DNA of 64,000 nt from Patescibacteria group bacterium (GCA_041661745.1 JBAZTR010000001.1:186471-250470), one strand, 5' to 3'; shown: positions 1 to 39,254, counted from the stretch's first letter. The notes: generated by a model not told the origin, from the sequence alone. Numbers and translations: made by a program.

Positions 1-65
1 CGCGGAGACGGCCGAATCAACGCCCCCGGAAAGTCCAACTAAAACCTTGGCTTTCTTTTTCATAA
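1..65 (-). CDS. N-terminal fragment of a PP-loop ATPase (MnmA-like tRNA 2-thiouridylase?), gene runs off the left edge
   Basis: The reverse complement of 1-65 translates MKKKAKVLVGLSGGVDSAVSA, which carries the SGGxDS PP-loop motif at the N-terminus. Only about 21 codons are visible. Confidence 0.4.
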
Positions 66-94
66 GTACCAAAGTCTAACTTAAATGACCCGGT

Positions 95-123
95 TTGACA
101 AATTAACGGATGACGAATAAATT
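95..123 (+). promoter_or_regulatory. candidate sigma70-type promoter (TTGACA, 17 nt spacer, TAAATT) upstream of the REC gene
   Basis: A TTGACA hexamer lies at about 95-100 and a TAAATT-like -10 at about 118-123. A GGAGG RBS lies 6 nt upstream of the GTG start at 150. Confidence 0.3.
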
Positions 124-149
124 ACTTTGGCCGGCACTGGAGGAATAAC

Positions 150-557
150 GTGAATGAAAGAAGACACTTCCACGTCCTTGTGGTCGAAGACGAAATTGCC
201 GTGAGACTGGTCATCGGTCGGTTCGTCCAGGCCGCGCTCAAGGGGCAAGTCAAGGTCAGCCTGGCCGACGGTTTAGTCGAGGCTGGGCGGCTTGACCTGA
301 AAGACGTCGACCTGATCATCTGCGACATGACCCTCGGCTACAACGAGAACGGTTTCGATCTGCTGCGCCACATGCGGGCCGCTGGCATCGAAACACCGTT
401 CATGCTCATGACCGGCTACTCACCGGAACGAGTGGCCGAAAACATGCGGCCCGGGGAGAAGTTCTCCAACTTCAACCTCATCTACAAGCCGCTCAAGAGC
501 ATCGCCGACTTCCGCGAGAAACTCGAAGCAGCTCTCGCCCTCACCGCGCTTTCCTAG
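150..557 (+). CDS. stand-alone response-regulator receiver (REC/CheY-like) protein, high-GC ORF
   Basis: The 135-aa product contains VLVVEDE...LIICDMTLGY...LMTGY and a K in YKPLK, matching the receiver fold. It has a GTG start after GGAGG. The ORF GC is well above flanking DNA. Confidence 0.65.
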   Translation: MNERRHFHVLVVEDEIAVRLVIGRFVQAALKGQVKVSLADGLVEAGRLDLKDVDLIICDMTLGYNENGFDLLRHMRAAGIETPFMLMTGYSPERVAENMRPGEKFSNFNLIYKPLKSIADFREKLEAALALTALS

Positions 558-582
558 TTCAGGGGCGCGCTTTTTTTATTTC

Positions 583-957
583 CTAAATACCAATAACATC
601 AATCTCGCCGGTAACCTTACTTATCTTTACACAAAAACTGTAATTATTTTTATTTTCTTTATCAGTATAAGTGGCCGCAAAATAAGCCGTATAGGTTTGA
701 GCGTTATCTTCTTCGTTTTCTAATTCTAAATCAGCCGACTGCTCCTTAAAAGTTTTAATTTTCTCCGTAAGAATCAGGGCTTTGACTATTTCCCGCGGCG
801 CTACGGCTAAAGGTAAAACCGCGAGGCCTAAATGTTTCATTTCTCCTTTACCGACAGTTATGGCATCAACTTGATTAATTTCTGAAAAATATCCTTCGGT
901 GTTGATAGTTGGTTTCTCCTCATGACTTTCAAGATGCATGGTTTCAAGAGCACTCAT
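583..957 (-). CDS. hypothetical protein
   Basis: The ORF is 583..1017. The start was moved to the Met of MSALETMHLE to avoid overlapping the uppP 3' end. No recognisable motif. Confidence 0.35.
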   Translation of the reverse strand: MSALETMHLESHEEKPTINTEGYFSEINQVDAITVGKGEMKHLGLAVLPLAVAPREIVKALILTEKIKTFKEQSADLELENEEDNAQTYTAYFAATYTDKENKNNYSFCVKISKVTGEIDVIGI

Positions 958-959
958 AA

Positions 960-1772
960 TTAAATAAATATTAAAATGATTATACCGGCCAAAATAATTC
1001 GATAAATGACAAACCATTTATAACTGGTGGCTTTCATTATTTTTAAAAGAAATTTGATGGCTAAAAAGCCGGAAAGAAACGCTGCAATGAAAGCAATAGC
1101 CAAAGACAACCAATCAAACGATTCCCCACCGGAAATAATTTTTAATAAAGAAAATCCGCCGGCCGCGGCGATTGAAGGAATTCCCACCAGAAAAGAAAAT
1201 CGGGCCGCTGCTTCGCGCGTCAATCCGCCGAACAGACCGGCAGTAATAGTGATACCTGAACGCGAAGAACCGGGAATAAAAGCAATGATTTGTGATAAGC
1301 CTATCGCCAGTGAACGTTTCCATCCGATCTTAACCAAATCGCCTCTTGCCACGCCGTAGCCCGGCGAAGGCGGGTCTGCATTCTTCCTGACCAAAGCATC
1401 GGCCACCCACAAAACCACGCCCCAAAAGGCCAGCGAGGCCGCTATGGCGAGCGGCGAACGGAAAGTGGCCTCCAACCAGTCGCTGGCGAAAAAACCAACT
1501 GCCAGGACCGGTACGGTCGCGGCGACAATGAACCAGCCGAGGCGACCATTTTCGTTTCGTTTAAAAACTCCGAGGGTGATTGCTTTGACATCTACCCATA
1601 AGGCAACAATCACCGCGGCTAGTGTTGCCAAGTGAATTGTGGCATCAAAAGCCAACCCCGGATCAGTCCAGCCAAATAATTTAGGAATTAAAACAAGATG
1701 TCCAGAGCTGGAAACCGGCAAGAACTCAGTTAGGCCCTGAACAAAACCGAGGATGATGGATTGAATTATCAT
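960..1772 (-). CDS. uppP: undecaprenyl-diphosphatase (BacA/UppP)
   Basis: The 270-aa multi-pass membrane protein has an N-terminus GFVQGLTEFLPVSSSGHL and a later PGSSRSGITI motif, both characteristic of UppP. Confidence 0.85.
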   Translation of the reverse strand: MIIQSIILGFVQGLTEFLPVSSSGHLVLIPKLFGWTDPGLAFDATIHLATLAAVIVALWVDVKAITLGVFKRNENGRLGWFIVAATVPVLAVGFFASDWLEATFRSPLAIAASLAFWGVVLWVADALVRKNADPPSPGYGVARGDLVKIGWKRSLAIGLSQIIAFIPGSSRSGITITAGLFGGLTREAAARFSFLVGIPSIAAAGGFSLLKIISGGESFDWLSLAIAFIAAFLSGFLAIKFLLKIMKATSYKWFVIYRIILAGIIILIFI

Positions 1773-1774
1773 AG

Positions 1775-1810
1775 GCTATAGTATGTAGTAGGTAGTATGT
1801 AGGCAAAAGT
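1775..1810. repeat. family-1 heptad repeat (TATGTAGTAGGTAGTATGTAGGCAAAAG), left TIR of the four-helix-bundle cassette
   Basis: GTAG-based 7-mers ending in GGCAAAAG, inverted relative to the copy at 2163-2200. Related copies lie at 3945-3975, 32958-33035 and 55258-55326. Confidence 0.7.
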
Positions 1811-1811
1811 T

Positions 1812-2162
1812 TTATTTTGTCATTGTGTTAAGAATCTTCATAATTTCATTTAAAATATTTTCCACGGCGTCATAATCAGCTGCTTCACCAAAACCCAATC
1901 TTTTGGAAATAAAGGTTTGTGTCTCTAACTCCGCTCCGGAGCCAAAAGCAATTCTAAGAAAATGTTGGAATTCAACCGAACGACCGCGTCTCCTACCCTC
2001 GGCTATATTAGATGGAATAGAAACCGAGCAACGTCTCATTTGACTTGTTAAACCATAAATTTCCGAGCGAGGAAACTTTTCGGTTAATTTATAAACGAGA
2101 ATAACCAGTTCAACTGACTTTTGCCAGACAATCAAATTTTTATAAGGAAAATTCTCCAACAT
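1812..2162 (-). CDS. four-helix-bundle protein (TIGR02436; formerly 23S rRNA intervening-sequence protein)
   Basis: The 116-aa product contains WQKS..L...Y..T..FP..E.YGLTSQ.RR...SI..NIAEG and a C-terminal part that matches the family. Confidence 0.8.
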   Translation of the reverse strand: MLENFPYKNLIVWQKSVELVILVYKLTEKFPRSEIYGLTSQMRRCSVSIPSNIAEGRRRGRSVEFQHFLRIAFGSGAELETQTFISKRLGFGEAADYDAVENILNEIMKILNTMTK

Positions 2163-2200
2163 AGTTTTTGCCTACCTACTACATACTACCTACTCAAACC
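2163..2200. repeat. family-1 heptad repeat, right TIR of the four-helix-bundle cassette
   Basis: TTTTTGCCTACCTACTACATACTACCTACTC is the inverted complement of the 1775-1810 copy. Confidence 0.7.
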
Positions 2201-3940
2201 TCAAGAAACTTCTTCAAAATATTTGTTAAAACAATCAATACAATAAACAGTTTTTTCCGGAAAAGTTTTGTTAATCGAAACGATCATCTCTTTACCGCAC
2301 TTGTCGCATTTTCGGTCGACAAAAACCGCGCTGTTCGTCTCTTGAATCATTTCAGCCATACGACGAATAAAATGTTTATTAGGTGGGGCAACACGAAGTT
2401 TCTTGTATAAAGCAATTTCCGGTTTTAAAAATGTAAAATAACGACCAGTTACTTCGTCCTTTATTGGTACACCGCACCAACTGTCATCAATCTCATCAAT
2501 GGAATCAGGAATATCATTAGACGATCTGGCTTTGTTAATATCAACGCGGGTTTCACCAATAGCGTCAGCCGAAGATGGATCATAAATGGCCGCGCCGAGT
2601 TGTTTGGCTTCCTTTTCCGTCGACAACCAGTACATGGCCGAAGCTGATTGTAAAAAGTAAATCGGCGAAAAAGACAATGGAAAAAACTTTCCGTATTCCC
2701 CACGTTCAAGCATGGTCACCTTTAATTCATCAACTCTCTTCCAATACTCTTCCTCGGAATACGGTTTATTGAAAATGTGAAATTTTTTGTGTTGCAAGCC
2801 AACACAACCAAAACAATTTTCGCAATTTTCACACTCAAAACTATATTCCATGTTTTGACACTTGTGCATGGAATAACAAAAACGACAATTATTTGTTTGC
2901 GACAAAAAGACGGAGCTGTAACAATTGGCAATCCCGCTGGCACTGGTAACAAAAGCGCTGTCCAAGGCCTCGTTAGCCGTAAAAGAAGTGTGAAAAAGGT
3001 TAATTGGTCGCTCCACACAAGCGTAACAATAATGACAGTCACGGGCCTTAACTAAATATTCACCAATGGAATTTTCGTCAGAAAAATTCATGTTTACCGG
3101 CCAAACGATTTCTTTCCTCAAAAAATTATAATATTTATTTTTCCACTCTTCGGCCGCCGAACGTTTCCCAAGATCGATCTTTAAAATTTTTTCTTTATAT
3201 TCATTTTCGGTTAACGGCTGATTAAAGAAAAGATTTTTCTTGTGTTTGCGAATGGCCACACCAAAACAATCAACACAGTCGGGAGCAATAAAAGCAAAAA
3301 CCGAATTCATGGTGCCACGAGTATCGGAAACATATTGCGAACGAAAAACATTAAAGGCATCGTTGACATGGTAACTTTCCACGGCCTGCAAAACATTATG
3401 AATTTCCACCGAGCGTTCGGTGTTGGCGGCAAAAAGACAAAACATTGATTCCCGTGTCTTTCCATCAATCACAAAATAACTGTCGATATCGCCGAACGAA
3501 CCCAAGGCCATTGATTTTTCCGGCTCAATCAAATTATTAGCCGCCTTTAAAGGAACTTGAACCTGCATTTCGCGGAACTGCTCAAAGAAAGATTTTTTGG
3601 CGTCGTATTCCCGGCCCTCACTGGAAAAATCTTTGGTCAACCACTCTTGATCGGGCAAAACCTTCAAGCCACTAGATGGGTGAACATACGACAAAACCGC
3701 AGCCCCGGTGGCCGGATGTTTTTGCCACCACCACTGGAAACCATTCATGAAACCGCCGATAATTCTTTTTCGAGATAACGGTGAAATGTCGGAAGGCGGC
3801 ACATTGAATTTTTTATACCAGCCGATCTCTTCGTCGGTCATCAGCCATTTCTCGCCAGTGAGCGCACAGGTATGCTCGCCCGGCACGAGGCCGTCGAGAA
3901 TAACTTTTATTTTAGCATCGTAATTTGGAGTTTTCGACAT
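2201..3940 (-). CDS. large Cys-rich protein (about 24 Cys; CxxCFG repeats) with a C-terminal CxxC..YCxxC zinc ribbon; paralog of 3982..5718
   Basis: The 579-aa product shares its N-terminus MSKTPNYDAKIKVILDGL with the next gene. It has repeated C.NC.NCFG...F.IFNK..EEY modules and a C-terminus KCDKCGKEMIV...VYCIDCF. No signal peptide and no family recognised. Confidence 0.6.
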   Translation of the reverse strand: MSKTPNYDAKIKVILDGLVPGEHTCALTGEKWLMTDEEIGWYKKFNVPPSDISPLSRKRIIGGFMNGFQWWWQKHPATGAAVLSYVHPSSGLKVLPDQEWLTKDFSSEGREYDAKKSFFEQFREMQVQVPLKAANNLIEPEKSMALGSFGDIDSYFVIDGKTRESMFCLFAANTERSVEIHNVLQAVESYHVNDAFNVFRSQYVSDTRGTMNSVFAFIAPDCVDCFGVAIRKHKKNLFFNQPLTENEYKEKILKIDLGKRSAAEEWKNKYYNFLRKEIVWPVNMNFSDENSIGEYLVKARDCHYCYACVERPINLFHTSFTANEALDSAFVTSASGIANCYSSVFLSQTNNCRFCYSMHKCQNMEYSFECENCENCFGCVGLQHKKFHIFNKPYSEEEYWKRVDELKVTMLERGEYGKFFPLSFSPIYFLQSASAMYWLSTEKEAKQLGAAIYDPSSADAIGETRVDINKARSSNDIPDSIDEIDDSWCGVPIKDEVTGRYFTFLKPEIALYKKLRVAPPNKHFIRRMAEMIQETNSAVFVDRKCDKCGKEMIVSINKTFPEKTVYCIDCFNKYFEEVS

Positions 3941-3944
3941 ATGT

Positions 3945-3975
3945 TTTTTGCCTACATACTACCTACTACTGGCCT
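3945..3975. repeat. family-1 heptad repeat, single copy upstream of the Cys-rich gene
   Basis: TTGCCTACATACTACCTACTACT. On the minus strand it reads ...GTAGTATGTAGGCAAAAAACATATG into the start codon. The 1812..2162 gene has the same start context. Confidence 0.65.
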
Positions 3976-3981
3976 ACCGGC

Positions 3982-5718
3982 CTAATTATTCTCTTCGAGA
4001 TACTTTAAATAACAGGATTGACAATAAATCTTACGGTTCGGATACTGAGGACATTTTGAGACCAAAACTTCTTTCTGACATTCGTAACACTGTTGTTTTT
4101 CTAGTGAACATATTTGTCCGCTGGCAGCCAAAGTATTAAGACGATGAATAAAATGTTCGGCTGGCGGAGCGATGCGTTTGGCCCGATAATAATCTAGTTC
4201 GGGTTTCAAAAAACTAAAAGTACGCTTAGCTTGTTCGTCATAAATCGGAACTCCTATCCAATCATCACCCAAGTCATCAATGGAATCAGGAATGTCTTTT
4301 AAACTTCTTGGTTCGTTTTTTAGACGTTCAGTGCCGGTTGCGCCTTCGGCATTAGGATCAAAAAACAAACCCCCGATCTTTTTTAGTTCTTCGTCAGTGG
4401 CTCCACAATAAATCGTGGCCCCGCCCTCGGGCACATAAGTCGAAGAAAGTTCCGGCGGTAAATAGTGTCCATACTCGCCACGTTCGAGCATAGCACACTT
4501 AAGTTCATCAAGGGTTTTCCAATATTCCTCTTCTTCGTACTGTTTATTTAAAATACAGAAACGCTTATTTTTCAAACCAATACAGCCAAAACAATCTCGA
4601 CAATCAGAAGACATGAGACAGTATTCGCAATTATCTAACCTGAAAGAACGATAACAAAATTTACTCTTGTTAGAATTTGGCGAGGAGACACACATGTAAA
4701 CCTCGGAATTATCGACCAGTCCCCAACCATAAGCGTTACCTTGATTATTACCGTATATCCAGGCGCTTCGCCAATTATCAACTGGATTATCACCGGAGGA
4801 AAAACATTCAGTACAACGAACAGCATTACTCAAATAATCGCCGGACGATTGCTCGGTTGAGACATTAAAATTTTCCGGCCAAATACCTTCGTTAAGCAAA
4901 AGCTCGTTAAATTTCTTTTGCCATTTTTCAACGACGCTTCTTTTGCCCAAATCAATTTCAGCTAAACGAGCCTCATATCCTTCTTTGGTCAGTTGTTTGT
5001 TAAAAAATAAGTATTCGGCGTTACGACGGTTAGTCGCACCAAAACAATTATTACAATTTCGACATTCAAACAAAAAGTTGGAATTTAAACAATCCAGCGA
5101 TTCGTGAACATAACGACAATTGTGGAGACGTTGGCTGTGAGTAATATGGTGTGAATCGGTGATGTTAAAAGCCAACCAGATCAACGAGGAATCGGCGATA
5201 CCAAAAGCCCCACCTGAAAAAAAAGATCTCTCCGACCTGCAGGCAAAAGTGAAATAACTGTCTTGGTCACCCATAGACATAAGCGCAATCGAATTTTTCG
5301 GCTCAACCCGATTAAAAGTCGCCAGAAGAGGCACGCGAAGTTCAAGTTTTCTTAATTGTTTAAAAAAGGGATCTGGAATTTCGAGGGTTTCAAAAATATT
5401 GGAAAAATCCTTGGTGTGCCACTCGACATCCGGCAAAACACGAATACCCGAAGCCGGATGATGAAAACTCAAGACCGGCTGACCGGTTTCAAAATGTTTG
5501 TTCCACCAAAACTGATAAGCACAATCATAATAAGCCATTTGTTTCCAAACAGTGTTAGGCGAAACATTGTGTGGTGGAACCATGAACTTTTTGTAAAGTT
5601 CGATTTCTTGAATCGGCATTTTCCATTTCTCGCCAGTCAAAACACAAGTCTGCTCGCCGGGGGTGAGTCCGTCGAGAATAACTTTTATTTTAGCGTCAAA
5701 ATTAGGAGTTTTACTCAT
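3982..5718 (-). CDS. large Cys-rich protein, tandem paralog of 2201..3940, with a C-terminal zinc ribbon
   Basis: The 578-aa product begins MSKTPNFDAKIKVILDGLTPGE, has C.NC.NCFG-type repeats and ends CYECQKEVLV...IYCQSCY. Confidence 0.6.
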   Translation of the reverse strand: MSKTPNFDAKIKVILDGLTPGEQTCVLTGEKWKMPIQEIELYKKFMVPPHNVSPNTVWKQMAYYDCAYQFWWNKHFETGQPVLSFHHPASGIRVLPDVEWHTKDFSNIFETLEIPDPFFKQLRKLELRVPLLATFNRVEPKNSIALMSMGDQDSYFTFACRSERSFFSGGAFGIADSSLIWLAFNITDSHHITHSQRLHNCRYVHESLDCLNSNFLFECRNCNNCFGATNRRNAEYLFFNKQLTKEGYEARLAEIDLGKRSVVEKWQKKFNELLLNEGIWPENFNVSTEQSSGDYLSNAVRCTECFSSGDNPVDNWRSAWIYGNNQGNAYGWGLVDNSEVYMCVSSPNSNKSKFCYRSFRLDNCEYCLMSSDCRDCFGCIGLKNKRFCILNKQYEEEEYWKTLDELKCAMLERGEYGHYLPPELSSTYVPEGGATIYCGATDEELKKIGGLFFDPNAEGATGTERLKNEPRSLKDIPDSIDDLGDDWIGVPIYDEQAKRTFSFLKPELDYYRAKRIAPPAEHFIHRLNTLAASGQICSLEKQQCYECQKEVLVSKCPQYPNRKIYCQSCYLKYLEENN

Positions 5719-5723
5719 ATCAA

Positions 5724-5748
5724 AAGGAGGCGCTTTTGGCGCCTCTTT
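5724..5748 (-). terminator. hairpin (AGGCGC TTTTG GCGCCT) between the ATPase gene and the Cys-rich gene
   Basis: An 8-bp GC stem lies directly downstream of the 5752 stop on the minus strand. The U-run is short (4), so this is a weak or partial terminator. Confidence 0.35.
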
Positions 5749-5751
5749 ACT

Positions 5752-7176
5752 TTATACGACTATTTCGCTTTCTTCCACCCTGGCCGCCGGGGCGTTGATT
5801 TCTTTATCGCCCTGCTCCAGCTCGGCCGTAACCTCGGCCCTGGTTTTGGCATAATTTTGCCGCGATTCCTCAACAATGTCTTGAGAAAAACTTTCGTGAT
5901 GCGACGGCGTGACCTCAAGAACATCAGCCGAGAACGGATCGAAACGTTTGCCATCAATGGTCATTTTAACATAAATCTCGCGCGCCCCGAGGTTAATGAT
6001 ATCGTGCATGTCAAAAATCGGGGCCAACTCATCTTTCAAAATCTTGGCATCATCGGCGCCAATTTGAAAAGTAATAACCGAAGCAACGTTACCAAAAAGC
6101 GAAGCTTTAAGACTATCGGAAAGCTGACTAAGATTTTGGTTGGCCACGGTCACGGCAATACCAAACTTACGCGATTCGGAAAGAAGATTTTCAAAAGTTT
6201 TAGTGGCAATATTTTGAAACTCATCAACATATAAATAAAACGGCTGACGCAGATGCTCTGGTAAACTAATACGTTTCATGGCCGACTGTTTTATTTTAGT
6301 AATAAGGGTGGCTCCGAAAAAAGCCGAAACATCATCACCAAGCAAACCCTTGGACAAATTAACCAAAACGATTTTGCGTTCCTGCATGAAATGATAAAAA
6401 TCGACTTTATTTTCTTTTTGGCCAAAAATGTTGCGCATCAACGGATCGGCCAGCAACTGCCCGAGTTTATTTAAAAGCGGCGAAACCGCTTCGGCATCAT
6501 ATCGTTGTGACCATTCAGGAAACTCGATCGCCCAAAAGCGACGAACCACACTGTCTTTTATAAACTCAATGACTTTACTGCGAAAGCGACCACTCGAAAG
6601 AAGCGAAACCATGCCGTTAATGGTACCGGCCGGATAATCAATCATGGCCAAGGTGGTCATGCGGAGCAGGTGCTCAACGCGTGGGGTCCAATCCGAACCG
6701 AATTGTTTTTTAAAAATTTCGATGAGCTCGTTGGTAACCGGAAAACGATCGGCTTCGACAACATTGGCAATTGGGTTAAAAGAAATGGGAAATTCGCGAT
6801 CACTGGGATTAATTAGCACCACATCATCAAGACGTTCTTCGGGAATAAAATCCATGATGCTTTGAACCAAATCACCGTGCGGATCAATAATACACACGCC
6901 GTGACCAAAAAAAACATCGGAACGAATCAACAGTTCCAACAATTTCGTTTTCCCCACCCCGCTTTTGCCAATAACGTACATGTGGCGGGTGCGATCTTTA
7001 CGTTTAATACCAAAAATCAAACGCTTGGCGGAAATTCCTTGACTAAAGTTGGATCGACCAAATAAAGAAATTTCTTCGGCCGGAGTATTATCTTTAGTTG
7101 GTAAAGCCGCCGGCGGTTCGTGCCGACGAGCAACAATTTGGTCTTCACCTTTCGGGTATTCCATATTAATTACCAC
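5752..7176 (-). CDS. P-loop NTPase of the TraG/TraD/VirD4 (type IV coupling-protein, DUF87-like) superfamily, copy 2, no TM segments
   Basis: The 474-aa product has Walker A GKSGVGKTKLLE, then IDPHGD, Walker B-like YLYVDEFQN and VTVANQNLSQL. It is paralogous to 7170..9077. Confidence 0.5.
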   Translation of the reverse strand: MVINMEYPKGEDQIVARRHEPPAALPTKDNTPAEEISLFGRSNFSQGISAKRLIFGIKRKDRTRHMYVIGKSGVGKTKLLELLIRSDVFFGHGVCIIDPHGDLVQSIMDFIPEERLDDVVLINPSDREFPISFNPIANVVEADRFPVTNELIEIFKKQFGSDWTPRVEHLLRMTTLAMIDYPAGTINGMVSLLSSGRFRSKVIEFIKDSVVRRFWAIEFPEWSQRYDAEAVSPLLNKLGQLLADPLMRNIFGQKENKVDFYHFMQERKIVLVNLSKGLLGDDVSAFFGATLITKIKQSAMKRISLPEHLRQPFYLYVDEFQNIATKTFENLLSESRKFGIAVTVANQNLSQLSDSLKASLFGNVASVITFQIGADDAKILKDELAPIFDMHDIINLGAREIYVKMTIDGKRFDPFSADVLEVTPSHHESFSQDIVEESRQNYAKTRAEVTAELEQGDKEINAPAARVEESEIVV

Positions 7177-9077
7177 GGGAAAATATCATCTTTTGATTTT
7201 GTTTGTGGGACAGGACGGCTTGGTTGATTTTGTTGCGGTTGACCGCCGCCGCCACTTGGCTTACGACGACGGCGACGTCTTTTTTGTCCTTCGCTGCTCG
7301 GCACGGCCAAGACAGGAGCAGCGGCTGGTTGAGTTTTCTTTAATTCTTGCGATAAAAAATCTCCCGGCATTTTAGGTAAGGCGGCCATTGGTTCAACCGA
7401 TGAACTTTCGTCATTTGTTTTTTCCTCTTTATTTTTTAACGAGGAAAGACTAACGGCTCCGGTTGTTTCTTTGGTAACTGGCGCGCCATCCTTAACCGCC
7501 GGCGGCAAGGCCGGTTTCCGATCATTAGCCCGTTCCTGACTGCGACCATTTCCCTTTTTTCGTTCTTCCCTAACCAACTCAATACAATCCTCACAATAAA
7601 TGGGACGTGATTTATCAAGTTCAACCGGCAAAATCATGTGTTTACCACACCGGGTACAATCGTATTCAAATAAAGGTTTCCCGCCAAATTTTTTGGCGGC
7701 CTTACGCACGGTTTCGGCATGCTCAAACTTTTCGACCACAGCTCCGGCCGCCACTGACGAGGTAACTTCCACCCCGCCACCTTCGGCCTCACTCCAACGC
7801 ATAATTTCGTCGGCCACAATGTCACGCGGCCGGGCGTAAAGAGCTCGAGAATTATCTATGACGATTTGTTCGGAATTGGTTTTTTGAACAATTGGCGGCA
7901 AAGTAACGGCGGAAAACGGTTCCGAAGCCACGCCGTCAATCATTAAACGAAGATAAATTTCAAATTTAGCCAAATTCACCAAATCTTCCGGAGTAAAACG
8001 GGGCATGAATTCAGTTTCCAGAAAAGCGGCATCCGGCGAACCGACTCGAAACATCATTATGGTTCCAACGTTGCCAAAAACCGCCGCTCGAACTTCTTCT
8101 GTTAACTGTTCAATGTACTGATGAGCCATGATTAAGGCCAAACGATATTTTCGAGCCTCAGACAAAATTGAAGCAAAACTTTCCGTGGCAAAGTTTTGGA
8201 ATTCGTCGATATACAGGTAAAAGTCACGACGCTCGATTTCCGGGGTGTCGACGCGTTCCATGGCGCAAAGCTGTAATTTGGTAATCAACATGCCGCCCAA
8301 AAGTTTCATGGCGTCTTCACCAATTCGCCCCTTGGAAAGGTTAACAATAAAAATCTTGCTGCTATCCATGATTTCTCGGGGCTTTATGGTCGAATCTACC
8401 TGAGCCACGATATTACGAATAACCGCGGTTGAAAGAAATTGTCCAACTTTGTTTTGAATAGGGGCAATCGCCTCAGTGCGGAACTTGGGCTCCCACTGTT
8501 CGAACTCGGTAATCCAATAAGATTTAACGACCGGGTCCTTAAGATTGGAAACCAGGCGCACCCGAAAGTCGCGATCAACCAACAAGCGATTGATGCCCAT
8601 TAAAGTATTGCCGGGATTTTCGAGCAAGGTCAAAATGCAGTTATTCAAAATATGCTCCATGCGCGGACTCCAAACATCAGGCCAGATTTTTTTAAAAACG
8701 CCCATGAGCCCCGAAGCAATAACGTGTCGGGTGTTAATATCGTGCGATTCCAAAATATTAAAACCCACAGGAAACTCAACATCGGACGGACAGAAATAAA
8801 CCACATCTTTCTGCCGCCATTCGGGGATATAATTGATAAGTTTTTCCGCGGTATCGCCGTGCGGATCAATATAAGCGCAACCATGCCCCAAATAAATGTC
8901 GGCCAAAATCATGTTTTCGAGCAAGGTTGTTTTACCCATGCCGGTTTTACCAATAACATAAGTATGCCGACGGCGATCGTCGGTTTTTATACCAAATTTC
9001 CGCATTTGATTGCGATAGTTGGTACGCGCGAAGTAAATTACATCGTGCTCGTGATCGTGATCTTCGTAAGCGGGCAT
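7170..9077 (-). CDS. P-loop NTPase of the TraG/TraD/VirD4-like superfamily, copy 1, with a C-terminal zinc ribbon and an Arg/Pro/Gln-rich tail
   Basis: The 635-aa product has GKTGMGKTTLLE, IDPHGD, YLYIDEFQN and MAHQYIEQL. Its C-terminus is CTRCGKHMILPVELDKSRPIYCEDC followed by ...KRRRRRRKPSGGGGQPQQ. It overlaps the next gene by 7 nt, which indicates an operon. Confidence 0.5.
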   Translation of the reverse strand: MPAYEDHDHEHDVIYFARTNYRNQMRKFGIKTDDRRRHTYVIGKTGMGKTTLLENMILADIYLGHGCAYIDPHGDTAEKLINYIPEWRQKDVVYFCPSDVEFPVGFNILESHDINTRHVIASGLMGVFKKIWPDVWSPRMEHILNNCILTLLENPGNTLMGINRLLVDRDFRVRLVSNLKDPVVKSYWITEFEQWEPKFRTEAIAPIQNKVGQFLSTAVIRNIVAQVDSTIKPREIMDSSKIFIVNLSKGRIGEDAMKLLGGMLITKLQLCAMERVDTPEIERRDFYLYIDEFQNFATESFASILSEARKYRLALIMAHQYIEQLTEEVRAAVFGNVGTIMMFRVGSPDAAFLETEFMPRFTPEDLVNLAKFEIYLRLMIDGVASEPFSAVTLPPIVQKTNSEQIVIDNSRALYARPRDIVADEIMRWSEAEGGGVEVTSSVAAGAVVEKFEHAETVRKAAKKFGGKPLFEYDCTRCGKHMILPVELDKSRPIYCEDCIELVREERKKGNGRSQERANDRKPALPPAVKDGAPVTKETTGAVSLSSLKNKEEKTNDESSSVEPMAALPKMPGDFLSQELKKTQPAAAPVLAVPSSEGQKRRRRRRKPSGGGGQPQQNQPSRPVPQTKSKDDIFPW

Positions 9078-9086
9078 AAGGTGAGG

Positions 9087-10733
9087 TTATAACGGAAGAT
9101 TCGGCGGAATAATTTTATCTTCCTCTTCCATTCCTTCCGTTGCTTCGTTGGGGGCTGGCGGAAGTTTTACATCTTCAAGCTCAACGCCCGGTTCAAACAA
9201 AACTCGCATAACATCGGGAACATTTTTTTGAACATTAGACGCAACGGCCGTGGGCTGAGATTTAGTCTTTTGAATTCTGTTTGGTTCAATCGGCGCGGCA
9301 AAAGAAATTTCCGGCTCTAAAGTCGGCGACGTGGCCAAACCAATCGGCGGCGCTTCTTTTTTAGTTGGAGTAACCGGTGGCGTGCGATAAAGCGGAACAT
9401 CCTCCCCGGCAATCGGCAAAGAAACCGGTGGTTCAGCGCGACGCGATTCGGTTTTCTTAATTAACGGCGCTTTTATGGTGATGGTTGGGAAATGCCAAAT
9501 AGTTGCCAGTTCTTCAGTACACAAAATTTTAGGGGCGGCTCCCAAACTAAAACTGCGCTTTTTAAATGCTTGGGCAACCCGGGACTGACGATGGGTGTAA
9601 GTCCACCTTTGCCAAAAATAATCGTTTTTTGGAATTTGCGGGCTATACATGCCGAATTCCTGAGAACCATGATTATTAAACGGCGAAAGAAAACCCTTAA
9701 TCATGGGAACGCGTTGCCCCTTGCTATAAACGCCTTTTTTAGCAAAATAAGCAATTCTGATTTTAGTTTCAAAACCGAGGTGGGAAATCTTGTTCAAAAC
9801 CCCCTCAACTTGGGCTTTTTCTTCCAAAGTAATTTTAAAAGCCCGCCAAGGATCTTCCGGCTTATCAGAAGCTCCGCCTTCTAGGCCAAACATGGCGTTA
9901 ACATCAACCCCGGTGACTTCGTTGACAAAACCGCCCGGCCAAGACATCAGCTGATCCAAAAAACCATTTCCCTTGGCATCATCTTTAAGGCCGTAAGTTT
10001 TTTTAATAAACTTTCGCCCCTGCTCTTTCCATTTTTTTTGTTCAGATAAACCAAGAAGTATTTGAAAAAAGAAACATTCCCCCGGCCGCATACGACTCAT
10101 TTGTTCCAAAAGAGCGGACAACGGATCTTTTAACTCTTGTGATAGACCATGTTCAAACATTGGCCAAGTGCGTACAGGAAGATACTGATCTTTTTTTAAA
10201 ACAAACTCCGTTCCCCACATATCCCATTCAGGATCAGGGTACCTGCCCGGCACAATTTGGGCATAATCTTCAACTTCGGCGATTTGCGCGTCGGGATACT
10301 GGGCATAAATAGCGGCTTCGACCAAATCACGAAAACGCTCTTCACAACGAACGTAATACTGAATATAGCCATCAATGGAGGCAATCTCAAAACTAAACCG
10401 TGGCTGCATTTTGCCCATGAACCAAATTTCTTTCCAAAGCAGAGTGGAAAAAGTACCCTGAAGCGTGACAAAAATATTCTCCACGGCTTTTGGACTTTGC
10501 TCGGTCATTTTAGGCACGTCAATCGCTAAAACAATATACTGCAGGCGACCTTGAAAAATACCTTGCCGATAATCCTTCCAAATTTCCATTAATCCTTCGA
10601 GTAAAATGGCGGCAATGGGAATCCAACCGACTAATAAAATAACTTCCAAAAGAGCAACATCGATTGGTTGATTAAGAAAGGCGTGTAGATACGCTTCGGG
10701 CTTCGAGGTAATGGCAATGGCGAAGAGGAACAT
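9087..10733 (-). CDS. membrane protein (two N-terminal TM helices, large soluble domain, Pro-rich C-terminus), first gene of the ATPase cluster
   Basis: The 548-aa product has hydrophobic segments in the first 50 aa (AIAITS..., LLVGWIPIAAILL). It lies 10 nt upstream of the ATPase gene. No family recognised. Confidence 0.5.
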   Translation of the reverse strand: MFLFAIAITSKPEAYLHAFLNQPIDVALLEVILLVGWIPIAAILLEGLMEIWKDYRQGIFQGRLQYIVLAIDVPKMTEQSPKAVENIFVTLQGTFSTLLWKEIWFMGKMQPRFSFEIASIDGYIQYYVRCEERFRDLVEAAIYAQYPDAQIAEVEDYAQIVPGRYPDPEWDMWGTEFVLKKDQYLPVRTWPMFEHGLSQELKDPLSALLEQMSRMRPGECFFFQILLGLSEQKKWKEQGRKFIKKTYGLKDDAKGNGFLDQLMSWPGGFVNEVTGVDVNAMFGLEGGASDKPEDPWRAFKITLEEKAQVEGVLNKISHLGFETKIRIAYFAKKGVYSKGQRVPMIKGFLSPFNNHGSQEFGMYSPQIPKNDYFWQRWTYTHRQSRVAQAFKKRSFSLGAAPKILCTEELATIWHFPTITIKAPLIKKTESRRAEPPVSLPIAGEDVPLYRTPPVTPTKKEAPPIGLATSPTLEPEISFAAPIEPNRIQKTKSQPTAVASNVQKNVPDVMRVLFEPGVELEDVKLPPAPNEATEGMEEEDKIIPPNLPL

Positions 10734-10850
10734 ATCGTTGTCTATTATAGCACAAAAGGGCTTTAAAGGGTCGAGAAGAGCCTTGAAGGGTTGGGAAGAG
10801 TTGTGGAAAACAAAAACTCGAGCCAGTAGACTCGAGTTTTTAAAAACATT

Positions 10851-11750
10851 TTAAGCGCGGCGACGATGATTCCATTCTTCCCAAGCCACAAGTAAGGGGC
10901 TGGCAATAAAGATCGAGGAATAAGTTCCAATACCAATACCAACAAACAAAGCCAAAGCAAATGGTCGAGTTGTTTCCCCGCCCCAAACAAAGATAGCCAC
11001 AAGTGCCAACATGGTGGTAAGACTTGAATAGACTGAGCGGAATAAAGTTTGCTGAATACTTTTATCAACAGTGTCGCCAAAGTGTTCGTCACCAAAACGA
11101 CCCAAGTTTTCACGAGTACGATCAAAAACGACAATTGTATCGTTAATAGAATAACCAAGAATGGTCAAAGCCGCGGCCACGAAAGCTGTATCAATTTGCC
11201 AGCCAAAGAAATGACCGAGAATGGCAAACAAACCAAGCGGAACTATGACATCGTGAAAACCAGCAAAAACAGTGATTAAGGCGTATTTCCAAGATTTAAC
11301 TGGATCAGACACCTTGCGGAAAGACCAAGCAATAAACAATCCGATTAAAAGCAGGGTGACAATAACACCGGTGGTGGTTTTTTTACGCAACTCTGAACCG
11401 ACTGAAGGACCGAATGAATTAAACTGTAATTCGGTAACGCCTGGATCTTTGACCTCAAAAGCGCTAAGAACGGCCTGGTGGGCGGTTTCATCAAGAGCTT
11501 CAAGGCGAATAATCATTTCTGTTTCACCGCTCGGTTGAATCACCGAATGGTCATATCCTGCGGCTGATAAAATCGTTTGGGTCTCTTCGACACTCGGACG
11601 ATTTTGGAAATTAAGCTCGATAATGCTGCCGCCGGTAAAATCAATTCCGAAATTGAAACCAAAGATCGCAATCGCCGCAATACTGCCGACGATTAAAATC
11701 CCCGACAAAACGAACCAAATTTTTCGATGTTTAACAAATGAGAAGGTCAT
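10851..11750 (-). CDS. secF: protein translocase subunit SecF
   Basis: The 299-aa product contains the SecF-type segments GIDFTGG, AAALTILGYSINDTIVVFDR and a C-terminal TM. Confidence 0.85.
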   Translation of the reverse strand: MTFSFVKHRKIWFVLSGILIVGSIAAIAIFGFNFGIDFTGGSIIELNFQNRPSVEETQTILSAAGYDHSVIQPSGETEMIIRLEALDETAHQAVLSAFEVKDPGVTELQFNSFGPSVGSELRKKTTTGVIVTLLLIGLFIAWSFRKVSDPVKSWKYALITVFAGFHDVIVPLGLFAILGHFFGWQIDTAFVAAALTILGYSINDTIVVFDRTRENLGRFGDEHFGDTVDKSIQQTLFRSVYSSLTTMLALVAIFVWGGETTRPFALALFVGIGIGTYSSIFIASPLLVAWEEWNHRRRA

Positions 11751-11753
11751 AGA

Positions 11754-13796
11754 TTATTTTTGTTCAGGAATATGTCGGGCGTAATGTTTAATTTTATTCA
11801 TCCATTTAACTTTCTGTGAAGCCAACAAGTAGGTATGGGTCACGGTCACGGCCGTAAACATGCTGAATAAAACACCAATCGACAAGGTTAAAGCAAAACC
11901 TTTAATAAAGCTGGAACTAAAAGTATACAAGACCACGGCAGCAATAAGCGTGGTCAAGTGACCATCGCGAATAGCCGGCCAGGCGCGGTGGTGTCCTTCA
12001 TCAATAGCCGAACGTAAGTCACGCCCAGCTCGCAATTCTTCTTTTACACGTTCAAAAATAAGCACGTTGGCGTCCACCGCCATACCAATAGACAGAACTA
12101 AACCAGCAATACCAGAAAGTGAAATAGTTACGCCGAAAATACGGTAAGTCAGTAAGTTAAGGGCAACATAAAACAACAAGGCCACAACTGCAACAAAACC
12201 CGGCACTTGATACATGACAAGCATGAATAAACCAACCAGACCGAAACCGGCCAAAGCCGCCGTAATACTGCGATCAAGTGAGGTTTGGCCAAGCATTGGG
12301 CCGACAGTTTGTTGTGAAAGTAAACTAACCGGCACTGGTAAAGCCCCGGCGTTTAAGCGTTGAGCCAAGGTTTTAGCTTCGTCCAAAGTAAAGCTGCCAG
12401 TAATAACTGCCTGTCCTCCAGCAATTTGATCTTGGACGGTCGGAACGGAAATCGGTGAACCATCTAAGAAAATAGCTACTTGTTGGCCGATGTTGCGTCC
12501 AGTAATTTCGGCAAACATATCAGCGCCTTCGGCGTTAAACTGCAGGGCTACGTGAGGTGAACCGGTAGTTTGATCGAATTCAACTGTGGCTGTTTTTAAC
12601 TGTTGACCGGTTAACCCAGTGGATTTCCATTGTTCATCAACCTGAGCAATGTCGTTCAAGGTAGTTAGTTTAAGAGCAATGTCTTCCAAATGATAAACCG
12701 TAATCGGCTCTTGAGCTTTTTTGTAAATAATGTGGTAACCAAATTCAGTTTCCACTACTTCAGAAATTCCACCAACCGGCGTATTCAACGCCGCCAGTTC
12801 AAAAGCCGCGACGGTTTGGCCTGGTTCGATCCAACCCAAATATCCGCCATCAGAAGCGCTACCCAGGTCAGTTGAAAACTCTTTAGCCTTTTCAGAAAAA
12901 TTTTCCGCTGTCAAACCATCTTTCAAGGCAATTAATTTTTGGTTGGCTTCGATAGCCGGAATCGGATTAGCACAACTGGTTTTACCTTCAAAACAAATTA
13001 AAATGTGGGAAAGCTGCATTTTTTGCGAATCCTTTTTTTCATCGTAACGAACAATATTCAACATTCCGTTGGTTTCGATAACACGAGAAACAACCGAACC
13101 TGGCTTGGTCCGGAAATTAAGCGCCTCCTGAACCAAATAACCGAAGTCTGTATTGTCGGCGCTGATCCAACCAAGATCATTGCCGTTTAATTCAGTTGAA
13201 AGAGCCACCCAATCTTCGCTTTTAGCCCGAGCCAAAACTTCACTGGCTTTTTGGCGTTCGGTTATATTAGCCGCATCGATTTGTGCCTGTTCTTCGGCTG
13301 TCGCGGCTCGACCAACTTCGGTGTTGGCTTCTTTAAATTCCAAAATAGGCGTTTCGCCAATTTGTTTAATAGCTTCGGTAACATCAAGTACACCAGCCAA
13401 ATCAACAATAATGCGGTTACCTTGAGCTGTGGTGACTAACGGTTCAGATACGCCGAAGGCATTAACACGACGTTCAATAACATCACGTACGCCTTCCAAA
13501 GCTGCTCCTTGTTCGGTTCCCTCAACCTTTGACATGTCGGCTTGGTACACCAGGTGTGTGCCGCCTTGCAGGTCAAGACCGAAGCGATAAGCTGATTCGT
13601 CCAGCTTTATGGCGTCGGTGCTGAAACCGGTTAAACCGCCAACCCACGTAACCCCTTTATTCCAATAGCCTGGAAAGTCGTAAGCCGCGGCCGCCAAGGT
13701 GGCAATTAAAAAGAAGGCGGTTAGGCCCGGAATTAGCCATTTTTTTCGCATTCCGGAAGCGCCCCCTTTTGGATAGTTTCTTTTCCAATTTTGCAT
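11754..13796 (-). CDS. secD: protein translocase subunit SecD with an inserted PpiC/parvulin-type PPIase domain
   Basis: The 680-aa product has a SecD N-terminus and the C-terminal TM core LSIGMAVDANVLIFERV. An internal segment LSHILICF...GGYLGWIEPGQTV...TEFGYHIIYK matches the rotamase signature. Confidence 0.8.
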   Translation of the reverse strand: MQNWKRNYPKGGASGMRKKWLIPGLTAFFLIATLAAAAYDFPGYWNKGVTWVGGLTGFSTDAIKLDESAYRFGLDLQGGTHLVYQADMSKVEGTEQGAALEGVRDVIERRVNAFGVSEPLVTTAQGNRIIVDLAGVLDVTEAIKQIGETPILEFKEANTEVGRAATAEEQAQIDAANITERQKASEVLARAKSEDWVALSTELNGNDLGWISADNTDFGYLVQEALNFRTKPGSVVSRVIETNGMLNIVRYDEKKDSQKMQLSHILICFEGKTSCANPIPAIEANQKLIALKDGLTAENFSEKAKEFSTDLGSASDGGYLGWIEPGQTVAAFELAALNTPVGGISEVVETEFGYHIIYKKAQEPITVYHLEDIALKLTTLNDIAQVDEQWKSTGLTGQQLKTATVEFDQTTGSPHVALQFNAEGADMFAEITGRNIGQQVAIFLDGSPISVPTVQDQIAGGQAVITGSFTLDEAKTLAQRLNAGALPVPVSLLSQQTVGPMLGQTSLDRSITAALAGFGLVGLFMLVMYQVPGFVAVVALLFYVALNLLTYRIFGVTISLSGIAGLVLSIGMAVDANVLIFERVKEELRAGRDLRSAIDEGHHRAWPAIRDGHLTTLIAAVVLYTFSSSFIKGFALTLSIGVLFSMFTAVTVTHTYLLASQKVKWMNKIKHYARHIPEQK

Positions 13797-13882: not shown

Positions 13883-15019
13883 TTAAATCCAAGCTAATAA
13901 TCCAGCCAAAACAATCACCACGATTGTGTGTGCAATGATTGTATGATGCTGAATTTCAAATTTAATCAAGATACTGGCGAGGAGAATGGCCGACAAAACA
14001 GCCATAGTTAATAAGAATAACTGTCGAACTGTATCTTCGATTCCGTTAATGTGTAAAAAACCGAGCAGGGTTAATTGTCGATTACCACCTTCGGCATAAA
14101 AAACATCGCGACTATCTGAGCTGCCAGCTACCCAACCGGCCTTTTGTATTTCACTTTCGCCGTCTTTCTTGGCTTGCACAAAAACATCGGCACCATCAGT
14201 ATCCGGAACTTCAGAAATAGTTGAAACCGTGCCCGTCCAAATATCCGTTCTTTCGTCTTTAACTAACTCAACACTGTTTTCGTTTAACGAAACTTCAACT
14301 TCATCAGCGGTTGGCGCGGTCACGGCAACCTCAACCCCCGTTGTTGTTAAAACAACATTGGTTATCGTAGCCAGCTTGGTTTCAGGTTCAGTTTCTTGCG
14401 CTAAAATTTCACTTGGTTTATTCCTTGGTTTACCAAACATTTGAACAACAACGATAGAATTCTCAAAATTATTAAAATTTCCACGAGCCACCCCAACACC
14501 AATATCGGCAAAACGTTCGTCCATTATGTTGGCGCGGTGAGTGGGGCTAGCCAACCAACCAGCCAGCGTGTCCTCGGCTTGAGTGTAATAAACCGCCAAA
14601 TTCTCCCCAGCCAATTCATAAGCGTAACCGTTGGAAAGAATCCACTGCCACGGCGTGACATTGGCGGGACTAGTGTGAGCGAAATACTGATTTAAAATCA
14701 TGTCTTCGGCCTTGGCTTGAGCCGCGGCATCAAGTTTGGTGTTATCGACCAGCTCCGTTAGCCCGGCCGAACGACGGCTGGCGTTGGTCAAATCAATAAT
14801 ATTTTCACGCGTCACCGCACTGGAATAAAGGCTGGCCGATGGTAAAAAAAGCTGGGCGCTAATTAGGGCCAATTTTATTATTATCAAAAAAAAGCTGTAC
14901 GCAAACAAGGCTTGATGACGAATTGCCTTAGGTTTGTGGTCATTCCCCTCGTGCGGAACAAAATAATCTTTAGAAATTCTTTTTGAGGCGTGAAAGAAAC
15001 GCGACAAGTGCTGTTTCAT
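13883..15019 (-). CDS. membrane-anchored CAP/SCP (cysteine-rich secretory protein-like) domain protein
   Basis: The segment NQYFAHTSP...LAGENLAVYY...WLASPTHRANIMDERFADIGVGVA matches CAP. It has an N-terminal TM. The start was moved to MKQHLSR to avoid overlapping the sortase gene. Confidence 0.6.
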   Translation of the reverse strand: MKQHLSRFFHASKRISKDYFVPHEGNDHKPKAIRHQALFAYSFFLIIIKLALISAQLFLPSASLYSSAVTRENIIDLTNASRRSAGLTELVDNTKLDAAAQAKAEDMILNQYFAHTSPANVTPWQWILSNGYAYELAGENLAVYYTQAEDTLAGWLASPTHRANIMDERFADIGVGVARGNFNNFENSIVVVQMFGKPRNKPSEILAQETEPETKLATITNVVLTTTGVEVAVTAPTADEVEVSLNENSVELVKDERTDIWTGTVSTISEVPDTDGADVFVQAKKDGESEIQKAGWVAGSSDSRDVFYAEGGNRQLTLLGFLHINGIEDTVRQLFLLTMAVLSAILLASILIKFEIQHHTIIAHTIVVIVLAGLLAWI

Positions 15020-15044
15020 AGATAAGTATATGATAGCAAGAACT

Positions 15045-15683: not shown

Positions 15684-15736
15684 AGAACACTCCTACTCAA
15701 AAACGCCAGCTCTGTTTAAGGCTGGCGTTTCATTCA

Positions 15737-32957: not shown

Positions 32958-33035
32958 TCAAGTATGTAGTGGGTAGTATGTAGGCAAAAGTTCTAATTAG
33001 AACTCCTGCCTACCTACTACATACTACCTACTAAA
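32958..33035. repeat. family-1 heptad repeats as an inverted pair without cargo (about 75-nt hairpin) between cvpA and metG
   Basis: AGTATGTAGTGGGTAGTATGTAGGCAAAAG, then a palindromic spacer GTTCTAATTAGAAC, then CTCCTGCCTACCTACTACATACTACCTACT. Confidence 0.7.
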
Positions 33036-36610: not shown

Positions 36611-36617
36611 ACAAAAA

Positions 36618-36671
36618 TAGAATATCAGAAAAAAATAATACCGGCCACCTGGGGTTGAACCAGATGGCCGG
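36618..36671 (-). terminator. rho-independent terminator of the high-GC IPT/TIG gene
   Basis: On the minus strand CCGGCCATCTGGTTCAACCCCAGGTGGCCGG forms a hairpin, followed by TATTATTTTTTTTCT. Confidence 0.65.
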
Positions 36672-36680
36672 AGAGGTGCC

Positions 36681-39222: not shown

Positions 39223-39254
39223 ACGGACTTCCCCGTCAACTTCACGTCCCACAC

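Follow-up and report, generated by a model that had tools for sequence, protein, structure and literature searches.

Within a 64,000-nucleotide stretch from a Patescibacteria group bacterium (GCA_041661745.1, JBAZTR010000001.1:186471-250470; this whole stretch is the window, and its coordinates are used throughout), we have analyzed five consecutive genes at positions 2201-10733. All five are read from the minus strand, and they encode a membrane protein (M548), two ATPases that resemble the coupling proteins of type IV secretion systems (A635 and A474) and two large cysteine-rich (Cys-rich) proteins (C578 and C579). The best explanation of the locus is a chromosomally fixed membrane ATPase module derived from a type IV secretion system (T4SS), to which a lineage-specific client module has been attached. 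M548 and A635 are a widespread core pair that sits beside SecD/SecF in many Patescibacteria and is vertically conserved, and A474 together with one to at least nine Cys-rich genes is a lineage-specific, inserted accessory block. As a preliminary description of this DNA had proposed, the five open reading frames (ORFs) are co-directional and tightly packed: M548 (9087-10733, 548 aa), A635 (7170-9077, 635 aa), A474 (5752-7176, 474 aa), C578 (3982-5718, 578 aa) and C579 (2201-3940, 579 aa), with spacers of 9, -7 (an overlap), 33 and 41 nt in that order. None of the five genes was found to recur elsewhere in the window.

The division into core and accessory genes is drawn from six long-contig loci that were picked through DUF8128, the family of M548. 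Five of the six contain the membrane protein gene and an ATPase gene of the A635 kind (L-type) only, with neither an ATPase of the A474 kind (S-type) nor a Cys-rich gene. The sixth is arranged as in the window, with the membrane protein gene, the L-type and S-type ATPase genes, two genes of approximately 578 aa, a small gene and BacA. The order SecD-SecF-DUF8128-L-type ATPase-(hydrolase)-BacA is shared by these loci. Because this synteny persists in five loci that contain neither S-type nor Cys-rich genes, the core pair is considered vertically inherited and the S-type and Cys-rich genes accessory to it. The preliminary description had presented a candidate five-gene system; a fixed unit of five genes is contradicted by the occurrence of the core pair without A474 or Cys-rich genes in the SecD/SecF-BacA synteny.

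Analysis of the two ATPases confirmed the motifs previously read from them, namely GK[TS]G.GKT (GKTGMGKT / GKSGVGKT), IDPHGD and DEFQN, each present once per protein. A635 and A474 share 39% identity (E 8e-117). Pfam identifies TrwB_AAD_bind and TraG-D_C in both and T4SS-DNA_transf above threshold in A474 only; the matches to PF10412, PF02534 and PF12696 lie above the gathering thresholds, PF10412 scoring 32.7 and 45.2 bits on the two ATPases against a cut-off of 20.5. For the all-alpha domain that T4CPs carry inside the nucleotide-binding domain, the observation at hand is the span of the PF10412 match, residues 59-371 of A474. NCBIfam returned TraD, CD1115 and VirD4-like models, and the VirB4_CagE model (TIGR00929) reached 19.2 and 13.9 bits against a cut-off of 643, far under the models for type IV coupling proteins (T4CPs). 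Sequence matches in the PDB were limited to TrwB (1e9r, E 2.4e-8) and a much weaker 'AAA ATPase' (8bns, E 0.0027). A transmembrane (TM)-like hydrophobic 19-aa window is absent from A635 and A474, and the proposal of TrwB/VirD4-like ATPases that lack a TM domain is thus upheld.

The two ATPases are not equivalent. A635 has additional weak matches to zf_Tbcl_2 (Pfam) and TIGR04272 (NCBIfam), and its zinc ribbon is followed by a low-complexity, basic C-terminal tail of 137 aa with a net charge of +10 and a KRRRRRRK run. Ribbon and tail included, A635 has 59% identity with the lone ATPase behind DUF8128 in two further Patescibacteria genomes (loci L064 and L066), while A474 shares just 41% with it; therefore, A635 represents the core L-type and A474 an extra, S-type paralog. 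A474 lacks the zinc-ribbon tail, and the S-type is the kind of ATPase that co-occurs with the Cys-rich family. S-type ATPases (loci L072-L135) begin with an RRHEPPxxLP / APPPPELP peptide (RRHEPPAALP in A474, residues 16-26, window 7100-7176), which resembles RRAEPPVSLP, the junction with which M548 closes its DUF8128 domain (residues 431-440, window 9414-9443); a similar N-terminal peptide occurs in none of 54 L-type ATPases. Read from these short sequences, the likeness suggests that the S-type may be derived from a fused DUF8128-ATPase or may dock where the M548 junction does.

M548 is assigned to DUF8128 (PF26449) through a precomputed PF26449.1 match on an identical protein (P0121), a separate Pfam-A scan of M548 having given no family at E<=0.1. 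PF26449 is annotated on nearly all of 120 M548 homologs among the matches listed, and more than 1,300 relatives were found among the best 8,000 candidates. M548 has a single clear hydrophobic span (approximately residues 25-51), which is the sole TM-like span among the five proteins, and not the two TM segments first described. A globular domain resembling the VirB4 N-terminal domain (approximately residues 60-440) is followed by a disordered, proline-rich tail that ends in a conserved PPNLP. The AlphaFold model, built with 48 homologs, has a predicted local distance difference test (pLDDT) score above 90 over most of residues 50-420, and the soluble domain has the VirB4 N-terminal-domain fold. 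The preliminary description could match the combination of genes to no named system; the membrane protein can now be named as a DUF8128 protein with this fold. EccE homology combined with co-occurrence of EccB, EccC and EccD was not found, and our literature search returned no publications mentioning DUF8128.

M548 and A635 look like the two parts of a split 'long' coupling protein with a VirB4-N-terminal-domain-like N-terminal half, because both are one polypeptide in other lineages. The phrog_5156 profile (824 positions) matches M548 at positions 68-359 and both ATPases at approximately 400-824. A 748-aa Gracilibacteria protein fuses PF26449 with T4SS-DNA_transf and DUF87 and adjoins a member of the Cys-rich family. 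In an 812-aa T4CP from an Embleya plasmid, the N-terminal ~320 aa are collinear with the DUF8128 profile (E 6e-4, probability 28%), the alignment including an ELATLWHFP / ELAALAHLP motif; the T4SS locus around this protein encodes PrgI, a VirB4-like ATPase, a replication-relaxation protein and NlpC/P60. SPO1-like Bacillus phages have a 906-aa fused version, followed by a 'replication-relaxation' gene. The N-terminal peptide of the S-type ATPases is a detail consistent with M548 and A635 being such a split protein. In Bacillus phage CampHawk, the fused 906-aa gene and the 'replication-relaxation' gene directly behind it lie at 2747-6284 of L154, with a ParM-like gene upstream, and the corresponding pair of the Embleya plasmid, beginning with the fused 812-aa gene, lies at 6861-10379 of L149.

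The Cys-rich proteins constitute a new protein family. A full-length alignment gives C578 and C579 41% identity (E 4e-169); they contain 26 and 20 cysteines, where approximately 24 each had been counted before; neither has a TM-like hydrophobic window. A match to a characterized family was looked for in Pfam, NCBIfam, PADLOC, PHROGs, a PDB profile search and Foldseek against the PDB, and none was found. Matches of C578 and C579 in the first four were all weak or below curated cut-offs and mainly concerned zinc-ribbon models, C579 also matching an AhpD-domain model and an HNH-endonuclease PHROG. The PDB sequence-profile search with the family gave noise only (E>0.4), and Foldseek of the C578 model gave no PDB match at E<=0.001. 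In distant members Pfam recognizes the ribbon alone, except for one with an N-terminal GNAT domain. Degenerate zf-trcl (PF13451) domains, suspected at approximately residues 20-60 and 490-530, were dropped when hmmscan at E<=10 gave no support; one Gracilibacteria member only has a weak precomputed match to PF13451. Neither the Hexapep sequence family nor the trimeric left-handed beta-helix fold with an active site that defines hexapeptide transferases and gamma-carbonic anhydrases was recognized. A profile of 69 sequences retrieved 3,452 clusters at 50% identity (1,314 at E<=1e-30) from 1.84 billion representatives, and almost all members are 545-585 aa long among the matches listed. Named members belong to Uhrbacteria, Peregrinibacteria, Gracilibacteria and unclassified Patescibacteria. 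Our literature search found no publications linking Uhrbacteria with cysteine-rich proteins, and the linkage of DUF8128-ATPases to the Cys-rich family appears unreported in the literature searched, where neither family was found described. A phage origin of the family was set aside: no relatives of the Cys-rich proteins were found in IMG/VR viral contigs, although the ATPase does have distant phage relatives.

The AlphaFold model of C578 (pLDDT 92, predicted template modeling score 0.90) shows an N-terminal domain (residues 1-130), two beta-solenoid modules (approximately 140-240 and 290-390), a helical or mixed C-terminal domain and a terminal zinc ribbon. As placed by sequence motifs, a CxxCxxCFG segment caps each solenoid module and is followed by a helix. 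Conserved cysteines fall at 210/219/222/225, 370/373/376/379 and 544/547/566/569, in addition to C25, and the three groups would form three Cys4 metal sites. The most variable stretches (residues 161-200, 261-280 and 301-360) are mostly inside the modeled solenoid modules. The proteins are mildly acidic (family median isoelectric point (pI) 5.8), with net negative solenoid-2 and C-terminal regions; the idea of a DNA mimic was rejected, such mild acidity being uninformative.

A zinc ribbon is shared by A635 and both Cys-rich proteins, with a single match to the motif in each. In A635 the spacing is exactly CxxC-x17-CxxC (CTRCGKHMILPVELDKSRPIYCEDC, residues 474-498, nt 7584-7658, minus strand), and in C578 (residues 544-569, nt 4012-4089, minus strand) and C579 (residues 545-570, nt 2231-2308, minus strand) the central spacer is x18. 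The common motif of the preliminary description is therefore real in all three proteins, but it is not terminal in A635, where the tail follows. Occupancy of the four ribbon cysteines in 69 members of the Cys-rich family is 100% (C544), 99% (C547), 100% (C566) and 78% (C569), and 43 of the 45 full-length L-type proteins, those of L064 and L066 included, retain CxxC in the C-terminal region of the ribbon. The consensus is CxxCgKxxxVPFkPxxgRPVYCkdC in the L-type and CxxCxKxLxVAxNxxYPxRKIYCxxC in the Cys-rich family, and hhalign of the two ribbon profiles gave a probability of 96% (E 4e-9, 32 columns), so that conservation of the motif in orthologs, on which its significance had been made to depend, is borne out. 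Matches to curated ribbon models stay under their cut-offs: A635 scores 22.3 against 36 for TIGR04272 (E 8e-5) and 21.9 against 27 for PF23477 (E 1.4e-4), C579 reaches 14.5 with PF23477, and a relative (P0264) reaches 26.2 in the same test of the two models. One Gracilibacteria member is named 'CxxC-x17-CxxC domain-containing protein' at its source. The ribbon is probably older than the Cys-rich family, because A635-type proteins carry it at loci showing no Cys-rich gene. For the same reason a universal binding partner (nucleic acid, DUF8128 or the ATPase ring, for example) is more probable for the ribbon than the Cys-rich family.

The association of Cys-rich genes with the ATPases was examined in two samples, a forward sample of 63 genome loci picked through the Cys-rich family and a reverse sample of 80 metagenomic loci picked through S-type ATPases 50-56% identical to A474. 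In the forward sample, 12 Uhrbacteria loci have the membrane protein, L-type and S-type genes and, immediately behind them, up to 9 Cys-rich genes arrayed in the same direction, and in four distant loci (~30% identity) the Cys-rich genes are interleaved with the ATPases. In the reverse sample, Cys-rich genes are present at 57 of 79 loci, and at 27 of the 29 that have at least 4 kb on both sides. These genes are co-directional with the S-type ATPase in 127 of 132 cases, at a median nearest distance of 222 bp. Their order relative to the membrane protein (M), L-type (L) and S-type (S) genes differs (MSc, LcS, cLcS, MScL and others, c being a Cys-rich gene), which argues against a mere insertion hot-spot. 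The linkage is also retained in Gracilibacteria beside the fused DUF8128-ATPase. Taken together, these results answer the question, raised in the preliminary description, of whether the two families are linked in other genomes: the linkage is strong.

Array size varies between relatives, while the individual paralogs are ancient and individually conserved. Tandem arrays reach at least 9 copies, and one metagenome-assembled genome (MAG) contains at least 19. The window genome has a minimal array of two, and a close relative (DOJV01, A474 ortholog 91% identical) has at least 7 copies on two contigs. Of 170 Cys-rich proteins, 92% find their nearest relative outside their own genome (median 62%), their paralogs within it being more distant (median 46%); when clustered at 55% identity, the proteins form groups with roughly one representative of each genome. 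Recent array amplification or gene conversion was consequently rejected, since the paralogs antedate the separation of the species. At L013, L014, L017 and L036, where the downstream flank was available, the closest orthologs of C579 stand at the end of the array, before BacA. Apparent pseudogenes, in the form of frameshifted or truncated Cys-rich copies, were noted at L014 (2626-4546) and L034 (12853-15938). Other small genes are interspersed in some arrays. An Uhrbacteria array (L151, 5920-6165 and 10456-10716) contains small ArsR/SmtB-type HTH_5 genes and a Peptidase_S51 gene, and a Peregrinibacteria array (L152, 11674-12131 and 15584-16031) contains HicA/HicB-like toxin-antitoxin pairs. 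The HTH_5 genes are of the metal-sensor type and could hint at metal-dependent regulation of the Cys-rich genes.

In the reading that we tentatively put forward, and which we hold to fall a little short of an even proposition, M548 tethers ATPase rings and the S-type ATPase has the Cys-rich proteins as its clients, which would most likely be substrates for translocation. Rings formed by A635, A474 or both would be held at the membrane by M548, a task that in a T4SS falls to the VirB4 N-terminal domain or the T4CP TM domain. The A474-type ATPase would receive the Cys-rich proteins and, at the expense of ATP, move them out of the cell or into a host cell, and their arrays would be comparable to the Bartonella Bep effectors behind virD4 or to the EssC/EccC substrate arrays of type VII systems. 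The variable solenoid faces (approximately 160-200 and 300-360) may confer target specificity, and the common zinc ribbon may act as a docking or nucleic-acid-binding element. A more far-reaching version, which is doubtful at present, is a T4SS-derived but T4SS-independent translocation pathway of Patescibacteria, in which a DUF8128 anchor and one or two ATPase rings beside SecDF would carry Cys-rich cargo with three metal sites to the surface or the host, or would import host nucleic acid. Several observations weigh against the Cys-rich proteins being translocated. That they leave the cytoplasm at all is something we infer. All paralogs have one rigid architecture and length with many invariant residues, which fits subunits or enzymes at least equally, and the three putative Cys4 sites suggest stable folded metalloproteins that would be awkward cargo for a narrow T4CP channel. 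Their C-termini are not positively charged, unlike classical T4SS signals, and none of the channel components VirB6, VirB8 and VirB4 was found among the window proteins examined. A T4CP homolog was dispensable for epibiotic growth in one genetically tested species (PMC12102498). Solitary Cys-rich genes exist among housekeeping genes, as do arrays without an ATPase within 8-10 kb (for example, a seven-gene Peregrinibacteria array, where 8 kb upstream were available). In the window itself, a G+C-rich, terminator- or attenuator-like hairpin (5727-5745, minus strand; 7 bp, 6 of them G-C, followed by a T-run, CTTTTGAT) occupies the 33-nt spacer that separates A474 from C578.

The uniform length, the many invariant residues and the ancient, individually conserved paralogs would suit stable subunits, and the main rival explanation keeps the Cys-rich proteins in the cytoplasm. 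They would serve as interchangeable specificity subunits that present nucleic acid (host RNA or DNA taken up) or other cargo to the A474/A635 motors, the whole acting as a pump for nucleic-acid import, export or segregation. We judge this adaptor role to be rather unlikely, although it has several attractions. The CxxC-x17-CxxC ribbons and the KRRRRRRK tail of A635 resemble nucleic-acid-binding features, and the phage and plasmid relatives of the ATPase are paired with 'replication-relaxation' DNA-processing proteins where the Cys-rich genes lie here. Patescibacteria have also been reported to import host RNA by an unexplained route (bioRxiv 10.64898/2026.06.21.733656). An adaptor of nucleic acid is less easily reconciled with the mild acidity of the family and its net negative solenoid-2 and C-terminal regions, or with the finding of no recognized DNA- or RNA-binding domain besides the small ribbon, and it leaves the need for up to 19 paralogs unexplained.

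Two further explanations are both very improbable in our estimation. The solitary genes, the arrays with no ATPase in 8-10 kb, the hairpin and the ArsR/SmtB-type regulators within one array would each be expected if there were no functional link, the gap between the T4CP-like gene and BacA being a permissive site for unrelated, expanding Cys-rich metalloproteins (for instance in metal buffering or storage). Such independence is difficult to maintain when the linkage outlasts rearrangement (Cys-rich genes lie before, between or after the two ATPases depending on lineage) and outlasts the membrane-ATPase gene fusion in Gracilibacteria, when the family is present at all but two of the 29 well-flanked S-type loci, when S-type and Cys-rich genes are jointly present or absent at the DUF8128-picked loci, and when the ribbon type is common to A635. 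A defense function, also raised in the preliminary description, would combine the ATPase pair with diversified Cys-rich sensors directed at phages or other mobile genetic elements, one invader per paralog. It can draw on the diversified paralog arrays, the HicAB genes within the L152 array and the PADLOC matches of the ATPases to mad8 of MADS (E 1e-18 and 1e-15) and, more weakly, to HerA and DndH. These matches, along with PtuA and PDC-M01A, are confined to the two ATPases and include neither M548 nor the Cys-rich proteins. The block does not occupy a variable island but the vertically conserved SecA...SecDF...BacA housekeeping synteny, its paralogs form ancient orthogroups and do not behave as cassettes of fast turnover, neither a nuclease nor any other effector domain was detected, and no relatives were found in the viral contigs of IMG/VR, so that specific support for defense is wanting.

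The surroundings of the locus are those of an ordinary chromosome. Pfam matches identify SecF (10851-11750) and SecD (11754-13796) as the conserved upstream synteny partners, and BacA/UppP (960-1772) is the conserved downstream border of the block in related genomes; all three are on the minus strand and are regarded as context, SecD and SecF not being a demonstrated functional part. The order in the window is SecA, sortase, a CAP-domain protein, SecD, SecF, the five genes, a 23S_rRNA_IVP protein and BacA, and Mur ligases, SHMT, MetRS, BipA, TGT and UvrABC are also encoded. A scan of 25 window proteins, including the largest non-overlapping ORFs, gave no match to VirB4, VirB6, VirB8 or a relaxase, the matches obtained being housekeeping proteins. 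Identical proteins are recorded as hypothetical in a Patescibacteria group bacterium MAG, and the close relatives are Candidatus Uhrbacteria. Upstream of SecDF (13883-18244) are genes for the CAP-domain protein (cysteine-rich secretory protein family), the sortase and a protein of 835 aa, which has GE/DE-rich repeats of highly acidic character and ends in LPRTG and a hydrophobic tail; judged by these features, the last is probably a sortase-anchored surface protein. A stretch of approximately 4 kb (36000-40000) has a G+C content of 0.56-0.57 against ~0.44 elsewhere, with overlapping long ORFs on both strands, and is typical of an rRNA operon or foreign DNA.

Non-coding elements were evaluated as well. 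A non-coding RNA or riboswitch as the source of the A474-C578 hairpin was rejected, as an Rfam scan of window 1-12000 found nothing. The repeat that had been reported before both Cys-rich genes, GTAGGTAGTATGTAGG, does precede C579, but C578 is preceded by the hairpin instead. With 12 matches against 0.06 expected by chance (sites include 1781-1803, 3946-3969, 32969-33031 and 55258-55328), the repeat is a genome-wide intergenic element, and it was rejected as a component of the system. It also brackets the gene for the 23S_rRNA_IVP four-helix-bundle protein (1812-2162, minus strand), which is flanked by 36-nt inverted repeats containing it (1773-1808 / 2166-2201, 83% complementary). The repeat looks like part of a small cassette or a genome-wide intergenic element of promoter-like or REP-like type.

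Patescibacteria, or the Candidate Phyla Radiation (CPR), make up a large part of the diversity of bacteria, have genomes of roughly 1 Mb and live on other cells. The present locus is relevant to the question of how macromolecules pass between them and their hosts. A 2025 survey of 2,918 Patescibacteria genomes found 5,713 VirD4-like T4CPs, only 148 of them near virB4; about two orphan T4CPs per genome lie far from any T4SS, and their exaptation 'cannot be ruled out' (PMC12102498). The locus supplies the first concrete partner and context for such orphans, namely the DUF8128 membrane protein and a fixed SecDF synteny, to which several CPR classes add a specific second ATPase and a huge uncharacterized Cys-rich family. 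Up to 19 Cys-rich copies in one small genome would amount to ~3% of an assumed ~1-Mb genome. A new protein family emerges from the analysis, together with an architecture that may be intermediate between VirB4 and the T4CPs, and the role of the orphan T4CPs can now be framed as testable hypotheses concerning interaction, localization and metal content. If true, the T4SS-independent pathway would be a new class of secretion or uptake system specific to ultra-small episymbiotic bacteria.

Comparison with known systems serves to delimit the locus. In the Bartonella VirB/VirD4 system, tandem bep effector genes lie behind virD4; Xanthomonas X-Tfe effectors carry an XVIPCD, and type VII EssC/EccC loci carry substrate arrays. 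The Bep, X-Tfe, WXG and LXG proteins have no sequence or fold relation to the Cys-rich proteins. Bep-type effectors bear varied toxin domains, whereas the Cys-rich paralogs have one common architecture, and secretion is here a property that we infer. Beta-solenoids such as curli CsgA, the Tenebrio antifreeze protein and left-handed beta-helix enzymes align with just 80-127 of the 578 residues of C578, no Hexapep or curlin Pfam match was obtained, and these proteins have no counterpart to the N- and C-terminal domains, the CxxCxxCFG caps or the zinc ribbon. MADS and HerA-type defense ATPases resemble the two ATPases at the level of the mad8 match, and PADLOC matched no other component of those systems to M548 or the Cys-rich proteins. 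The long T4CPs of Firmicute phages (SPO1-like and phage G) and actinomycete plasmids are a further close comparison. They belong to the ATPase lineage of the present proteins (22-31% identity, phrog_5156 E 1e-51 to 1e-58) and likewise have an N-terminal DUF8128-like domain and a client gene directly downstream. They differ in that mobile elements carry them and the gene behind them encodes a putative relaxase, the Embleya pair lying within a full T4SS locus; in Patescibacteria, Cys-rich genes take the downstream place in a vertically conserved chromosomal locus.

Like VirD4, TrwB and TraG, the ATPases have the RecA-like P-loop domain of an NTPase with Walker A and B motifs, and their close plasmid relatives carry the NCBI name 'type IV secretion system DNA-binding domain-containing protein'. 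Unlike those T4CPs, the A635 and A474 polypeptides have no N-terminal TM domain, the TM span being in M548, a separate protein of VirB4-N-terminal-domain-like fold. The T4SS or relaxase context expected of a T4CP was likewise absent from the scanned window proteins, the locus being held instead in fixed chromosomal SecDF synteny, and the ATPase is duplicated, with one copy bearing a zinc ribbon. In comparison with VirB4/TrwK, the ATPase domains are nearer to T4CPs by sequence and no fused VirB4-family ATPase is present; two genes of the window encode the N-terminal domain and the ATPase (fused in relatives), and VirB3, VirB6 and VirB8 partners are not nearby. As the proteins depart from the T4CPs in both TM domain and context and from VirB4 in sequence, the locus is therefore best described as a T4SS-derived ATPase module that is neither a T4CP nor a VirB4.

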